Source of the DNA: a virus
Taxonomy: Duplodnaviria > Heunggongvirae > Uroviricota > Caudoviricetes
Reading direction: 5' to 3' (one strand)
IMG/VR virus record: IMGVR_UViG_3300029033_000135
Length of the DNA stretch: 30,187 nucleotides
Of this stretch, positions 12,401-29,394 are shown piece by piece; within the stretch, counting starts at the first letter, position 1; every line of letters starts with the position of its first letter. The notes under the pieces were generated by a model, which was not told the origin of the DNA, searched no databases, and saw nothing but the letters and a program-made list of their open reading frames with translations. The position numbers and the translations under genes are program-made.

Positions 12401-12838
12401 ATGAAAAACCTTTTAAATAATTTTCTTGACAATTGCATTGAAAATATTTTACCAAAAGATGATTTTGGTTATGGGCGTCTTTTAATCGGCTCAAAGGGTA
12501 AACGTATTAAAACTGGCGCGCATAGGTTAATTTACCGAATTTTTATTGGAGAAATTCCTGCGGGCATGGTTGTCAGGCATTCTTGCGATAATCCTGCATG
12601 TTGTAATCCAAAGCATTTACTAATAGGAACAATCCTTGATAATAATGCTGATCGACAGAAACGAAAACGCCAAGCACGTCATGAAAAACATGGGCGAGCA
12701 AAACTAACTAAAGAGCAAGTGCTATTTATAAGAGCTAATGAAATGAGTATACCAAATTCAGTTCTTGCAGATAAATACAGGGTCTCCAATAGCTTAATAT
12801 GGCAAATAAAAAACTATCGCATTTGGAATGAATTGTAA
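12401..12838 (+). CDS. HNH homing-type endonuclease
   Basis: 145 aa; HNH_3-like core AHRLIYRIFIGEIPAGMVVRHSCDNPACCNPKHLLIGT followed by a basic tail. Confidence 0.8.
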   Translation: MKNLLNNFLDNCIENILPKDDFGYGRLLIGSKGKRIKTGAHRLIYRIFIGEIPAGMVVRHSCDNPACCNPKHLLIGTILDNNADRQKRKRQARHEKHGRAKLTKEQVLFIRANEMSIPNSVLADKYRVSNSLIWQIKNYRIWNEL

Positions 12839-12916
12839 CCACGCTGTTGACGACAGCATCCAATAGTGACTATACTCCGCGCCGAGACCTCGAAAACCTC
12901 CCAAAAGCGGATTAAG

Positions 12917-12943
12917 CCAACCCCGTCAGTGTTGGATTTTTTA
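12917..12943 (+). terminator. Putative intrinsic terminator after the HNH gene
   Basis: ccaac-N9-gttgg stem followed by atttttta, about 80 nt after the HNH stop. Confidence 0.45.
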
Positions 12944-13118
12944 TGCCTGTCATTCAGTGATGGCACAATGTGCGGTCACATCCCCGATCCATGTCGGGAG
13001 GGCGACGAATACAACACCCGCAAGGGGAATAAGTCCGCGGTATCTTTTGGGCCGTTTCGAGCCTCCCGGCACCACATTTTGTGGTGGCATTTCTCGAAAA
13101 AAGCCAAAGGAGGTCATC

Positions 13119-13736
13119 ATGACCACTCAACTCATCCCTGTGTTTGAAGGTACAATCTCAAATGAACCTACGCTTCTGGTGAACGCGCGTGATTTGCATG
13201 GGTTTTTAGAGGTAGGTAAAGATTTTTCTAACTGGATACGGGCCAGGCTAAACGAGTATGGATTCGTAGAAAATTTAGACTACATTCTATTTTCGCCAAA
13301 TTTGGCGAAAACTCTAGGCCGCCGCCGCAAGGACTACCACCTCACCCTGGACACAGCCAAAGAGCTTGCGATGGTTGAACGAAACGAAAAAGGCCGCCAG
13401 ATCCGCCGCTACTTCATCGAGTGCGAAAAGAAACTTCGCAACATTCAGCCAGTACAAGCAGAATCACAGCCACAATTTACCGCCGAGGAAATCATCCTCC
13501 TTTGCTACATGCAACTCTGGATGGAAAAAGCCCAGGACCTTAGCAAGCAGCTGTACCCCATAATGAAAGAGCTGAACTCCTCATACACGAACAAGCTGTA
13601 TGACATTGCGTTTGAGACTATCTACATGGTGACGAAGAACAGAGACGCGNNNNNNNNNNNNNCGTCTCGACATGTCAAGTTCCGTTATCCAGCGGGCCAT
13701 GCCAATGCTGAAAAGCCTGCGGGCAAGACAATTTGA
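13119..13736 (+). CDS. Phage antirepressor-like protein (ORF6N / P22 AR N-terminal type domain); C-terminus uncertain because of the assembly gap
   Basis: Strong SD aaggaggt (13107-13114) before the ATG at 13119. N-terminal domain PVFEGT..LLVNARDLHGFLEVGKDFSNWIRARLNEYGFVENLDY is typical of ORF6N/antirepressor domains. A 14-N gap at 13649-13662 makes the downstream frame and stop (13736 or 13743) unknown. Confidence 0.7.
   Translation: MTTQLIPVFEGTISNEPTLLVNARDLHGFLEVGKDFSNWIRARLNEYGFVENLDYILFSPNLAKTLGRRRKDYHLTLDTAKELAMVERNEKGRQIRRYFIECEKKLRNIQPVQAESQPQFTAEEIILLCYMQLWMEKAQDLSKQLYPIMKELNSSYTNKLYDIAFETIYMVTKNRDAXXXXXSRHVKFRYPAGHANAEKPAGKTI
13649..13662. other. Run of 14 N (assembly gap or masked bases) inside the antirepressor gene
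   Basis: Direct observation; flanked by GAGACG (13641-13646) and its reverse complement CGTCTC (13663-13668). Confidence 0.95.
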
Positions 13737-13939: not shown

Positions 13940-15166
13940 ATGCCGGTAACTATAACAAAAATCAGAACTGGAGAAGATGTTTTGTCAGCAGCCATTCACC
14001 GCATTGAATGGTTGTTTGAAACATTCTCTTCTGTATGTTTATCTTTTTCTGGCGGTAAAGATTCCACTGTACTTTTCCATCTTGTAGCCGAAGTGGCCTA
14101 CAGGAAGAAACGTCGTTTTTCTGTATTGTTCATTGACTGGGAAGCCCAGTATCAATGCACCATTGATCATATACAGAAGATGCGGATGATGTACCAAGAT
14201 GTAACAGATACCTTTTACTGGGTTGCACTTCCCCTGACGACAGTAAATGGTGTCTCGCAGTTTCAGCCTGAGTGGATATGCTGGGAGCCCGGTGTAGAGT
14301 GGGTTCGACAGCCACCGGAAGATGCTATTACTGATATGGCGTATTTCCCCTTTTACCGCTACGCCATGACTTTTGAAGAATTTGTCCCAGCTTTTTCTTC
14401 CTGGTTCGCAAGTAACCAATGTAGCGTGGCAATACTGACTGGAGTCCGCGCGGATGAATCTCTTAACAGATTTATGGGACTGGTTTCCCAACGAAAACTG
14501 AGATATGCAGATGATAAACCCTGGACCACGGCGTCACCTGAAGGTTTTTACTACACCATGTATCCGCTGTATGACTGGAAAACCAACGATATCTGGGTAT
14601 ATAACGCTAAAACCTGTGCAATCTACAATCCTCTGTATGATTTGATGTACCGTGCAGGCATTCCTCTACGTAATATGCGTGTCTGTGAGCCTTTTGGCCC
14701 GGAACAGCGTAAGGGACTATGGCTTTATCATGTTCTGGAGCCAGAAACTTGGGCACGGATGTGTGAACGAGTATCTGGTGCTGCCAGTGGGGCTCTTTAT
14801 GCCAATGAAAGCGGGGCCTATTTTGCCCTGCGTAAACGGATGTCAAAACCATCCCATCATACCTGGCGCAGCTATGCGTTCTTCCTGCTGGACGTAATGC
14901 CGGAAAGAACGGCTGAACACTACCGCAACAAGATAGCAGTCTACCTGCGCTGGTATCAGAACCGGGGATTCCCGGATGATATCCCGGATGAACAGGAAAA
15001 TGATCTGGGCTGCCGGGATGTTCCCTCCTGGCGACGTATTTGTAAGACTCTCATAAAGAATGATTTCTGGTGCCGAACGCTCTCCTTCAGCCCCAACAAA
15101 CCCCGGCACTATGAACGTTACCTGCAGCGTATGAATGAAAGGAGGAAGGAATGGGGAATTCTGTGA
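13940..15166 (+). CDS. ibrA: PAPS-reductase-like PP-loop ATP pyrophosphatase (IbrA-like)
   Basis: 408 aa; PP-loop motif SFSGGKDS at residues 34-41 (nt 14039-14062), with a long C-terminal extension. A TTG at 13985 with GGAG upstream is an alternative start. The ibrA assignment is from memory of the IbrA/IbrB regulator family. Confidence 0.7.
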   Translation: MPVTITKIRTGEDVLSAAIHRIEWLFETFSSVCLSFSGGKDSTVLFHLVAEVAYRKKRRFSVLFIDWEAQYQCTIDHIQKMRMMYQDVTDTFYWVALPLTTVNGVSQFQPEWICWEPGVEWVRQPPEDAITDMAYFPFYRYAMTFEEFVPAFSSWFASNQCSVAILTGVRADESLNRFMGLVSQRKLRYADDKPWTTASPEGFYYTMYPLYDWKTNDIWVYNAKTCAIYNPLYDLMYRAGIPLRNMRVCEPFGPEQRKGLWLYHVLEPETWARMCERVSGAASGALYANESGAYFALRKRMSKPSHHTWRSYAFFLLDVMPERTAEHYRNKIAVYLRWYQNRGFPDDIPDEQENDLGCRDVPSWRRICKTLIKNDFWCRTLSFSPNKPRHYERYLQRMNERRKEWGIL

Positions 15167-15795
15167 CACCAGAGGTGGAGGTGCTGAGCAAGATGATTCG
15201 ACAGTACTTCAGTCAGGAACAATCTGAAGAGAAAACCATACAGGCCCTGAACCATCTCCGCTGCGTACTCCATGAGATCAGCCCCTTTGCTCAAGAACCA
15301 GTGGACTGTGTGCTGTGGGTAAAAGCGGATGAAATTGTCGCTAACGATTATAATCCCAATGTCATGGCCCCAAGCGAAAAAAAATTACTGAAACAATCTC
15401 TGGAAAAAGACGGTTTTACTCAACCAATTGTTGTTTCGGAAGAAACAAGCCATTACCTGGTGGTGGATGGTTTTCATAGGCAGTTACTAGGTAGAAGAAC
15501 AGTTACTGGAAAACGCCTGAAAGGCTGGCTACCAGTAACCTGTATTAATCCAGACCGAAAGGGACAAACCTCACGTATTGCCGCGACTATCCGACATAAC
15601 AGAGCCAGGGGGAAACACCAGATAACCTCAATGTCTGATATTGTCAGAGATCTTTCACGTCTTGGCTGGACTGATGAACGTATCGGAACAGAACTGGGGA
15701 TGGACCAGGATGAAGTTCTGAGGTTAAAGCAGATTAGCGGGCTAACGGAGTTATTTCAGCAGGCAGATTTCAGCCCTGCATGGACTGTTACATAA
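15151..15795 (+). CDS. ibrB: ParB/Srx-like nuclease-domain protein with C-terminal HTH (IbrB-like)
   Basis: 214 aa; ParB/sulfiredoxin-fold motif LVVDGFHRQ and a C-terminal HTH-like segment (TDERIGTELGMDQDEVLRLKQISGL). Its start overlaps the upstream stop by 16 nt and has the SD aaaggaggaagga. Confidence 0.7.
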   Translation: MGNSVTPEVEVLSKMIRQYFSQEQSEEKTIQALNHLRCVLHEISPFAQEPVDCVLWVKADEIVANDYNPNVMAPSEKKLLKQSLEKDGFTQPIVVSEETSHYLVVDGFHRQLLGRRTVTGKRLKGWLPVTCINPDRKGQTSRIAATIRHNRARGKHQITSMSDIVRDLSRLGWTDERIGTELGMDQDEVLRLKQISGLTELFQQADFSPAWTVT

Positions 15796-15816: not shown

Positions 15817-15851
15817 CCGGGGAATCGGAATTAAACATCTTCCCTCCCCGG
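15817..15851. terminator. Stem-loop between convergent ibrB-like and gepA-like genes (ccgggg ... ccccgg)
   Basis: Inverted repeat lies between the two stop codons; no clear U tract on either strand, so function is uncertain. Confidence 0.3.
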
Positions 15852-15883
15852 TAAATACAAATAAGGGCTGAACATCATCCCGA

Positions 15884-16408
15884 CTACCTCAGATCACCTA
15901 ATAATATATCAAGATTATTTTGCGCATTAATGCTATTCGCCATTACTGTTGCTGCTTCTGGCAACTTTCCAAGAGCAATAAATATATTCTTAAGGCTGAT
16001 TGGAATTGATGAACCATGCGGATCGCGCCACTCACCGCAAATTCTGTGAGTTTCATCACAAAGCCTGAACGCATCCCAACCTCCATATTGACCAAAAATT
16101 ATGTCCATTGACTCTATTTCTGCGGGCGATAACTCCCCCAGCTCATCAACAGAAGAAAATGTACGCCACATTTCAACCTTATGATCCGCTACATCAGATA
16201 TCCATGATTCCCACGGACTGTACTCGTTTTCACTTCCATCCTTAACCAAAGAATATGTCTGCGATAAAACGGGTCCTTTGTTCATAGAGAAATAATGATC
16301 ACCACTAATGGGAAAACCATACAACTCCATTGCTTTGCGGTCAGAGAGATACATCAGCTTAATGAAACGCATAGATCCGCCATGTTTTTTCAGCAAATAC
16401 GCTGCCAT
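15884..16408 (-). CDS. Phage-associated GepA-like protein (DUF4065 / Panacea antitoxin-type domain), no adjacent toxin gene
   Basis: 174 aa; N-terminus MAAYLLKKHGGSMRFIKLMYLSDRKAMELYGFPISGDHYFSMNKGPVLS fits my recollection of the DUF4065/GepA family N-terminus. It stands alone with 150 bp of spacer upstream. Confidence 0.6.
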   Translation of the reverse strand: MAAYLLKKHGGSMRFIKLMYLSDRKAMELYGFPISGDHYFSMNKGPVLSQTYSLVKDGSENEYSPWESWISDVADHKVEMWRTFSSVDELGELSPAEIESMDIIFGQYGGWDAFRLCDETHRICGEWRDPHGSSIPISLKNIFIALGKLPEAATVMANSINAQNNLDILLGDLR

Positions 16409-16558
16409 TTACGCAACTTTTTCTTCATTAAACATAAATCGGCTCTCTGTCTCACATGAAATACTCTTTCTGACTATATGTTAATAGCTCCGGTTATTAC
16501 AGGTTAATGTGTGTTTATTTCTTAATCAGCCCCGCACTTCCGTACGGGGCCATTTCTG

Positions 16559-28145: not shown

Positions 28146-28201
28146 ATCGGCTGAACCTCAGCAACCAGTTGACGGGGACTTTCGTCCCCGTCGCGGTTTT
28201 C

Positions 28202-28342
28202 CTACTGCTTACACTGTAAGAACGCCGCAAACTCCGCTCCCCACAAATTCAGCCGGAACTCACACAACGAGCCGTGTAACATCCAGATGGTGAAGATCAC
28301 CGTCATACAAATTGTGACGGTGATGAGCGATTTTTGCGACAT
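28202..28342 (-). CDS. Hok/Gef-family type I toxin-like small membrane protein (46 aa)
   Basis: Translated by hand (too short for the ORF track): MSQKSLITVTICMTVIFTIWMLHGSLCEFRLNLWGAEFAAFLQCKQ. The pattern IC.T..FT.....SLCE.R....E.AAFL matches Hok/Gef; SD aggagg lies 8 nt upstream. Confidence 0.6.
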   Translation of the reverse strand: MSQKSLITVTICMTVIFTIWMLHGSLCEFRLNLWGAEFAAFLQCKQ

Positions 28343-28403
28343 AGCGCTTGCCTCCTGAGTGGAGAGGCGCTAACCTTCTACTTGCTTAAGGTATGATGGT
28401 TAG

Positions 28404-28440
28404 GGCCTCGGGTTAACATTAAAGTTGACTCGGGGCCTTT
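28404..28440 (+). ncRNA. Possible Sok-like antisense RNA hairpin, or hok leader structure
   Basis: 14-bp stem ggcctcgggttaac / gttgactcggggcc with three G-U wobble pairs that work only in plus-strand RNA, followed by ttt; lies antisense to the hok-like leader. Confidence 0.25.
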
Positions 28441-28522
28441 CCACATCAGGCCTTCAGGTTCACCTTCCAGCCATCAGCCGAAAGGCACCCGCGCATAATC
28501 TACGATTTTTGCCCTGCACGGG

Positions 28523-28551
28523 CAACAAAAAACCCGCTATCACAGCGGGTT
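28523..28551 (-). terminator. Intrinsic terminator downstream of the lom-like gene
   Basis: On the minus strand: aacccgct-N5-agcgggtt hairpin followed by tttttt, 23 nt after the stop. Confidence 0.8.
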
Positions 28552-28573
28552 ATGACATGTTGTCGGGTATTAC

Positions 28574-29308
28574 TCAGAATTTCAGGCCAATGCCTACAAT
28601 AACCCCACTCGTGCGCCAGTCACCGGATCCGGAGCTTTCATACGCGACATCCATAGCAACACTTTCATTCAGGTTAAATTGTGCACCAGCAGCCCATGCA
28701 AGTGCTGTTTTTTTAGTACTCTTGCTTTCAGAAAAACTACCGGCACCATGATTAAGATTGTCGTTAATTTTCAAGTCAGTGGTGACTTTTGCACCCCCCA
28801 TACCAGCCATTGCATACACACTGAGGTATTCGTTAAACCGCCACGAAGGACCGGATAGTAGACTCCAGTAATTAGCCCTGATATCAGTTCTCGCTGAAGC
28901 TGCCGGATTTTTAACCTCTCTGGATTCATCTCCTGGGTTAATATCAATAAATGCCTGCGCATTAGTCATAGAACGCGCCCATGTAAAAGATGTTATAACA
29001 CCAATCTCATCCGTTATCTCATAACGATACCTGATGCTCATCCCCTGAGGAGATTTGCCTTTGCCATCATGCCCCCGGACAGAAGCATCTGCATATTCGC
29101 CTGAATTGAAGTAGTGTCTGTTTGTAAAACGGTTAAAAGTATCAAGATTATAAAGACTTAAATCCTTAACAAAATTGTTCAGTCCAGAGAGCTGAAGATG
29201 AGCGTATCCGAAAGAAACTGTACTGTCACCTTGTGCTGCACAGGCAGGGGCTGCTACAAAACTCATCACAAAAGTTGTGCACGCAAAAATAATTCTGGTA
29301 TGTTTCAT
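28574..29308 (-). CDS. Ail/Lom/OmpX-family outer-membrane beta-barrel protein (244 aa)
   Basis: Signal peptide (MKHTRIIFACTTFVMSFVAAPACAAQG), alternating amphipathic beta strands, and C-terminal GIGLKF ending in an aromatic residue as in Lom/Ail/PagC; AT-rich upstream region. Confidence 0.7.
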   Translation of the reverse strand: MKHTRIIFACTTFVMSFVAAPACAAQGDSTVSFGYAHLQLSGLNNFVKDLSLYNLDTFNRFTNRHYFNSGEYADASVRGHDGKGKSPQGMSIRYRYEITDEIGVITSFTWARSMTNAQAFIDINPGDESREVKNPAASARTDIRANYWSLLSGPSWRFNEYLSVYAMAGMGGAKVTTDLKINDNLNHGAGSFSESKSTKKTALAWAAGAQFNLNESVAMDVAYESSGSGDWRTSGVIVGIGLKF

Positions 29309-29394
29309 TTTTAGACTTTTCCTATAATAAAATAACCCCGTATTATCTAAGATGAATTTAGTTTTATTACTTAATATTCATACTGACAGGCATA

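Follow-up and report, generated by a model that had tools for sequence, protein, structure and literature searches.

The window, by which we mean the whole stretch of 30,187 nucleotides in IMG/VR record IMGVR_UViG_3300029033_000135, begins as Escherichia coli chromosome, with an integrase gene followed by speG, ynfC, ynfE and ynfF, and from about 12.1 kb on it carries one end of a short-tailed prophage of the 933W-like, Stx-phage type. Over its segment 15000-17500, the window shares 100% identity with E. coli EC2 and with several further genomes, against 98.6% with phage PhiR5_2. Within this segment lies a gene for a Panacea-domain (PanA) protein, which is found 150 nt 3' of a giant gene on the same strand and is convergent with ibrB across 88 nt (Table 1). 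The first-pass annotation of this DNA, made from the letters and a list of open reading frames, had described the gene as standing alone in this arrangement, and the ORF coordinates agree.

Table 1. Features of the Panacea locus, with coordinates in the window.
Feature	Coordinates	Strand	Basis
ibrA, PAPS reductase + DUF3440	13940-15166	+	Pfam, annotation
ibrB, ParB-like	15151-15795	+	Pfam, annotation
GC-rich inverted repeat, CCGGGGA...TCCCCGG	15817-15851		Sequence, fold, comparison with L081
Stub of the partner (putative toxin) gene, MMFSPY	15861-15878	-	Comparison with intact partner start
Panacea-domain ORF, 174 aa incl. stop codon	15884-16408	-	ORF list, PF13274
Single AAGCTGATG (KLM) unit	16352-16360	-	Alignments with intact form, cM8a and homologues
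Ancestral first nine codons, MFNEEKVA + TAA	16409-16435	-	Translation, homologue and DNA alignments
GC-rich hairpin, GGAA tetraloop	16528-16551	-	Fold, alignment of seven relatives
Giant polyvalent protein gene, 2793 aa	16559-24940	-	Pfam, annotation of relatives

The Panacea/DUF4065 assignment proposed in that annotation is borne out by a nearly end-to-end match to the Pfam family SocA_Panacea, PF13274 (70.7 bits against a cut-off of 25.7, E = 2.5e-19, profile positions 2-112 of 113). The protein also matches phrog_1281 (E = 2e-38), and in E. coli EC2 the gene bears the PGAP name 'Panacea domain-containing protein'. The GPV motif and the invariant Y, R, H, E and W residues are kept, Pfam detects no added DNA-binding or other domain, and a PADLOC search with PanA gave no match. 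In an AF2 model of P0009, a 57%-identical homologue (pLDDT 93, pTM 0.90), helices and short strands follow in the order expected for the compact alpha-helical PanA core with its two short beta-strands, with helix 1 at residues 4-18 and the conserved helix 2 at residues 24-42; searches of the PDB by sequence and by Foldseek returned no usable solved Panacea structure.

No toxin gene lies beside the Panacea ORF, as had been noted before: neither spacer holds a toxin-sized ORF, only a 15-aa stub and chance ORFs, and tblastn of four proteins of the partner family described below against the whole window, giant gene included, gave nothing significant (best E = 0.16). The spacer towards the giant gene contains a GC-rich hairpin that begins 8 nt past the giant stop codon and has a 10-bp stem and a GGAA loop (-20.5 kcal/mol, z = -4.9); the fold confirms its earlier description as lacking a U tract. 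The hairpin is identical in seven of seven aligned sequences (the window, PhiR5_2, NCTC9112, S1-KEN-03-A, 933W, 75/02 Stx and cM8a) and is part of the 3' end of the giant gene, not of the Panacea gene. On the other side, the inverted repeat probably serves to terminate the genes that converge on it. Its likeness to the hairpin after the intact partner gene (L081 6990-7035) is loose, and against shuffled sequence its fold has no significant energy advantage (z = -0.4 and -1.5). Rfam assigned no family to the spacers, giving sub-threshold chance matches only, and a promoter scan found no sigma-70-like promoter between the giant and Panacea genes. The sole predicted 'terminator' match was dismissed; it sits inside a coding start.

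Several neighbouring genes deserve mention in their own right. At the prophage end, between ynfF and ibrA (12401-13736), lie an ORF for an HNH endonuclease (145 aa, HNH_3) and one for an AntA/P22AR antirepressor; an HNH gene is missing from this place in the annotation of EC2, and the strain of the window may therefore differ from EC2 in this segment. In PADLOC, IbrA is weakly matched to BrxP and DndC. Genes for a Hok/Gef family toxin and an Ail/Lom outer-membrane protein lie at about 28200-29310, a position carried over from the L001 annotation with an offset of 1001, and belong to the late genes upstream of the giant gene; in 933W, hokW/sokW is found instead on the other side of the slot.

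The partner gene and the intact module of sister prophages

Homologues of the window protein at 46-69% identity, from Mixta, Yersinia, a P2-like E. coli prophage and a Salmonella lambdoid prophage, have directly 3' of them a gene of 133-142 aa that overlaps the PanA gene or lies at most 10 nt from it. In the phage collection, PanA stands just upstream of this partner in nine of nine records, and among ten phage records with a full-length PanA only PhiR5_2, the relative of the window, is without the partner. A scan of genome contigs, with one genome per species, yielded 61 partner loci in hosts ranging from Enterobacterales to Acidobacteriota, Planctomycetota and Gemmatimonadota, and in 60 of them the ORF immediately before the partner, in the same orientation, is a PanA, the one exception being cut by a contig end; a word-indexed protein search with the partner gave four matches. 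The general statement that Panacea proteins are encoded in bicistronic pairs, on which the first-pass annotation had relied, is thus true of this clade.

The partner family corresponds to phrog_19071 (about 134 aa, with the motifs HLHI(I/V)CNDP and GEH.FI.HPSY), whose phage records include SKA5, Lys8385Vzw, YeP1-3, Sirocco and ST13-OXA48phi12.5. The protein belongs to no Pfam, NCBIfam or PADLOC family, and we found no characterisation of a partner family of the phrog_19071 type. Modelling suggests a MazF/CcdB-like fold, and the protein is a putative toxin at the level of that fold. On this model, the partner would be a MazF/CcdB-fold toxin neutralised by direct binding of PanA, as in the validated PanAT pairs. 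A PanA module has been delimited by a toxin gene at most 100 nt from the PanA gene, in an arrangement conserved across species (PMC8832971); contigs L081-L092 and 60 of the 61 family loci have a putative toxin gene so placed, whereas the window has only a 6-codon stub.

An intact form of the window's own module is present in sister prophages. The 90%-identity cluster of the window protein includes P0104 (186 aa), and on the contigs that carry it, L081-L086, a giant LPD5/LPD1/MuF_C/LPD38 gene is followed by a 123-nt spacer, a PanA gene of 186 aa, a 5-nt gap and a 133-aa partner, after which come the convergent phage genes next to ynfF. The PanA of the L081 type has Gln9 and KLMKLM, and the partner runs MMFTPYRRGTILAPSG...KYCV. 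Contigs L088-L092 also have the giant gene, a PanA of 186 aa and a partner of 133 aa, and in L088, L090 and L092 the pair is followed by convergent ibrB-ibrA.

By blastn, the window is 95.2% identical to L081 over 735 nt, from the end of the giant gene to a point 18 nt inside the partner, and homology with L088 ends at the same point. In the window, the PanA stop codon is followed by tcggg (5 nt) and then by ATG ATG TTC AGC CCT TAT, which reads MMFSPY; the frame of this stub, MMFSPYLYLPGREDV and then a stop, stays open to 15831 as a meaningless 15-aa ORF, and past the stub come a 65-nt segment with the GC hairpin and the end of ibrB. Because homology stops 18 nt into the partner, the putative toxin gene has been deleted or replaced from codon 7 on. 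The ibrAB module (13940-15795, plus strand) adjoins this deletion junction. Other E. coli ibrB alleles are about 84% identical to that of the window (84-87% with L088 included), with homology ending at about 15789, and since the identity is only that high, the junction looks like modular recombination rather than a simple internal deletion in an L088-type prophage.

The ibrB allele of the window seems limited to 19 genomes that carry the orphan PanA. In L088 (2698-2844 and 4045-4192), as in L090 and L092, a direct repeat of about 148 nt (copies 88-94% identical, 1347 nt apart) consists of the last 120 nt or so of the giant gene plus the GC hairpin, present twice and flanking the module in these prophages, where the PanA-partner pair is followed by ibrBA; this repeat looks like a recombination scar, and a crossover between its copies could excise the module.

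Lesions in the antitoxin gene and decay of the same slot in relatives

Full-length homologues have 182-188 residues, most commonly 185, and nine Enterobacterales and related homologues start MF..E(K/R).AQMAAYLL. At this place, the window reads MFNEEKVA, a stop, and MAAYLL: the ancestral ATG is at 16433-16435 and an in-frame TAA at 16409-16411, so that the annotated ATG (16406-16408) is the codon right after a nonsense codon that the first-pass annotation missed. The TAA occupies codon 9 in four of four full-length orphan copies aligned (the window, PhiR5_2, NCTC9112 and S1-KEN-03-A), where the remnants of 933W, 75/02 Stx and cM8a and contigs L088-L092 have CAA (Gln); Gln is also residue 9 of the intact form (P0104/L081) and of 44 of 70 homologues.

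A second lesion affects the 9-nt unit AAGCTGATG, which encodes KLM and is present once in the window, 75/02 Stx and PhiR5_2, twice in the intact form and three times in cM8a. The family consensus at the repeat is KLMKLL with an invariant Leu (KLMKLM in the intact form), and the window has evidently lost three codons by slippage, which removed an invariant Leu column. Compared with the 186-aa form, the antitoxin frame is therefore not intact, having both the TAA at ancestral codon 9 and the 3-codon deletion. Going by the helix positions of the P0009 model, the TAA would strip the start of helix 1, and the KLM deletion would hit the start of helix 2. Residues that are conserved in close homologues have also been replaced, as R93W, H122G and D153N. 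As an observation on the repeat itself, AAGCTGATG is a slippage-prone, in-frame repeat inside a conserved PanA helix.

At the nucleotide level, the window PanA is 95% identical to the intact 186-aa PanA, and the comparison with the L081 copy gives 9 synonymous and 9 nonsynonymous changes (pN/pS 0.26); the last 1.5 kb of the giant gene, compared with L081 in the same way, gives 0.08. At Q9, K26-L27-M28, R93, V116, H122 and D153, the intact form has the consensus residue of the 13 closest homologues and the window is changed. When these changes are polarised with 70 homologues, K26, L27, V116 and D153 are clear majorities, and R93 and H122 are merely the commonest residue. Within the orphan lineage, 4 nonsynonymous changes and no synonymous one separate the PanA gene of the window from that of PhiR5_2; for ibrA next to it the figures are 0 and 3, a contrast for which our own calculation on these small numbers gives a Fisher exact p of about 0.03. 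These comparisons point to a relaxation of constraint after the loss of the toxin.

The same slot has decayed in related phages. In 933W, an unannotated segment ahead of L0135 has PanA codons 1-27, followed by a frameshifting deletion and then by the last 20 or so PanA codons, and L0135 (62 aa, phrog_1925; L002 3734-3922) consists of the first 11 or so residues of the partner fused in frame to residues of about 85-121, the core of the partner (roughly residues 12-84) having been removed by an in-frame internal deletion. Matching remnants of the 933W type occur in about 100 complete E. coli genomes. In 75/02 Stx and cM8a, PanA is kept for 37 to 43 codons, to the Glu of ...KAME, and this remnant abuts the terminator region found 3' of the partner in L081. 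The deletions in 933W, 75/02 Stx and cM8a are independent events in the same slot. Many shortened PanA variants are present in the protein database. Insertion elements are also found here, with an IS1 in the giant-PanA spacer of JNEC-KY204 (L019 1980-2677) and an IS3 that truncates both PanA and the giant gene in S1-CAM-02-A (L015 4774-5987). Among 5,426 complete E. coli genomes, 18 have a full orphan copy (one of them with an IS1 in the spacer upstream of the gene), one has an IS3-truncated copy, and 109 have only a 98-nt piece of the 933W type; the full Panacea gene is present in one of 186 related phage records.

A probably decaying antitoxin and the competing readings

We propose that the gene is probably what survives, in partly degraded form, of a type II PanA-PanT module, namely its antitoxin half; its origin from this module is shown directly by the sequence comparison. 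The PanA-PanT module has its place at the late-region end of 933W-like (Sepvirinae-type) prophages, just after the giant gene, and in the lineage of the window the partner was lost from codon 7 on where the ibrAB module now adjoins. The antitoxin gene, unneeded because the toxin is gone, would be drifting. At most, re-initiation at the ATG after the TAA would yield a PanA without its first 9 residues, with no cognate target in the cell. We infer that the PanA remnant has lost its function.

Some features count against decay. The 174-codon frame is still open, and PGAP has not flagged it as a pseudogene; the TAA is followed by the conserved Met10 ATG, where termination-reinitiation could give a nearly full-length protein; pN/pS against the intact copy is below 1; and orphan-type sequences are on more database contigs than intact-type ones (119 and 212 contigs listed for the orphan-type clusters, 6 and 50 for the intact-type clusters). 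The structure may tolerate the loss of KLM, given that the residues in front of it, R-F-I, are conservative replacements for K-L-M. The open frame, however, is weak evidence against decay, because the orphan copies differ by at most 1% and little time has passed.

The open frame and a TAA-ATG favourable for re-initiation would also suit a functional orphan PanA which, re-initiated and without residues 1-9, neutralises the MazF-like toxin of sister prophages and aids superinfection or displacement. Encounters of this kind are plausible, since other members of the phage family still carry the cognate module intact at the same integration site, and there are documented cases of phages using orphan antitoxins in counter-defence, one being directed against DarTG1 (PMC11825919). 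The three substitutions specific to the window all lie in C-terminal helices, and adaptation as well as drift could explain them. Yet helix 1 loses conserved N-terminal residues to the nonsense codon, positions that close homologues conserve have been substituted, the spacer is without a sigma-70-like promoter, and sister phages have lost the gene repeatedly, without apparent cost. The full orphan copy is confined to the 18 genomes counted above, and a partner gene of the L081 or P2 type at 80% coverage or more was found in 0 of the 5,426 complete E. coli genomes by blastn, which ran at the DNA level, where divergent members of the family would escape; intact pairs occur only in some draft assemblies (L081-L092). 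In addition, each PanA antitoxin examined to date has protected against its cognate toxin and no other (PMC8832971). The first-pass annotation had suggested that the Panacea protein neutralises a toxin encoded elsewhere, possibly as a counter-defence factor, and this suggestion is not supported: the cognate gene was downstream and has been deleted, the antitoxin gene is damaged, and no intact cognate gene was found at the DNA level in the complete E. coli genomes. We regard a functional orphan PanA as unlikely, and its narrower form, in which truncated PanA translated via UAA-AUG acts in anti-addiction or counter-exclusion against the PanT of sister prophages at the ynf site and the antidote is kept on purpose, as decidedly improbable. 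A residual anti-addiction role of the orphan PanA is possible but unsupported.

Polyvalent phage proteins can carry effector domains, and the giant and Panacea genes are on the same strand, 150 nt apart. As its other proposal, the first-pass annotation had placed a toxic domain within the C-terminal part of the giant protein, which Panacea would then neutralise. The comparative data speak against this. Among phage records that share the giant 3' end, 185 of 186 are without a Panacea body, so that the giant protein does not need Panacea, and of the roughly 2,000 E. coli genomes that match this region only 18 have the full Panacea gene. The Pfam content of the giant protein (LPD5, LPD1, MuF_C and LPD38 only) marks a 'polyvalent' virion-type protein, and no segment of it resembles the cognate partner. 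The true partner has been identified on the opposite side of the Panacea gene. A toxic domain in the giant protein is thus scarcely credible; the giant gene is an upstream neighbour, the counterpart of 933W L0134, and not the partner of Panacea. The domain might also have been turned into a sensor or regulator that works on its own, without any toxin: a sensor hypothesis for Panacea has been put forward (PMC10440598), and the survey in PMC8832971 detected no conserved two-gene locus for about half of its DUF4065 proteins. The closest relatives of the window protein are all paired, though, it has no extra domain, and the lesions and the decay pattern count against this reading as well, which we hold to be very unlikely. 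The orphan Panacea gene is most likely a case of ordinary gene decay, with no sign of a new counter-defence factor.

Relation to known systems and significance

Among the closest known systems are the PanA-PanT pairs whose toxins are MazF/PemK-like, which form clusters T5/T6 of Kurata et al. (2022, PNAS, PMC8832971) and include a validated pair from Pseudomonas moraviensis; we liken the module to these pairs by its features. Common to both are a stand-alone Panacea antitoxin without an extra N-terminal domain, a prophage location, the order in the intact sister module (antitoxin first, toxin gene a few nt later), and a partner without a Pfam match and with a MazF/CcdB-like predicted fold. The window differs from these pairs in the deletion of its putative toxin gene and in a nonsense codon that shortens its antitoxin gene. 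The accessible part of the PMC8832971 supplement does not list accessions of the orphan PanA or the partner. Membership of the partner in the T1 cluster was ruled out, the partner being unrelated to gp16 of Salmonella phage Emek (hhalign probability 0.2%). Emek itself has a different PanA pair (L087 14764-15637), of the T1 cluster and reported to be non-toxic, right after P22-like ejection and DNA-transfer genes; the place that it occupies is comparable to the slot behind the giant gene, and the partners are unrelated.

Phage orphan antitoxins with a counter-defence role include T4 Dmd, which acts against RnlA/LsoA. Like the anti-DarTG1 enzymes of T4-like phages (PMC11825919), the window gene is a phage homologue of an antitoxin without an adjacent toxin. 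Orphan genes of the anti-DarTG1 type, however, are intact, conserved in phage groups and matched by host toxins, whereas the window gene is damaged, rare (18 of 5,426 genomes), repeatedly lost rather than maintained across related phages, and without a cognate toxin system detected in the host population, as represented by the complete E. coli genomes searched at the DNA level. The Panacea/DUF4065 domain is also common to the window protein and SocAB of Caulobacter crescentus, from which the Pfam family takes its name. SocA is a ClpXP adaptor for the toxin SocB. The partner family described here is modelled with a MazF/CcdB-like fold, and no adaptor role is indicated.

Further counterparts are 933W L0135 and the short ORFs after L0134 in Stx phages (phrog_1925, phrog_3658 and phrog_28947), which occupy the same locus and derive from the same ancestral module. 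The window shares PanA with these relics up to codon 27-37, and in 933W also the 3' end of PanA and the ends of the partner. The cores of both genes have been lost in 933W, and everything past PanA codon 37 in 75/02 Stx; the window has kept the PanA body and lost the putative toxin.

Comparison with the sister prophages shows directly that the lone 'Panacea domain-containing protein' found in this prophage group descends from one PanA-toxin module, of which it is a relic. The same origin is shown for L0135 of 933W and for the tiny hypothetical ORFs 3' of L0134 in the cases of 933W, 75/02 Stx and cM8a; for other Stx phages, relic status is an extension from the remnants that they share. In annotation, such relics are not to be read as independent accessory or counter-defence genes. 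The phrog_19071 family, being tightly linked to one PanA clade across several phyla, is a candidate toxin or defence system. The locus as a whole presents a series of stages of toxin-antitoxin decay in an accessory-gene slot of these prophages.
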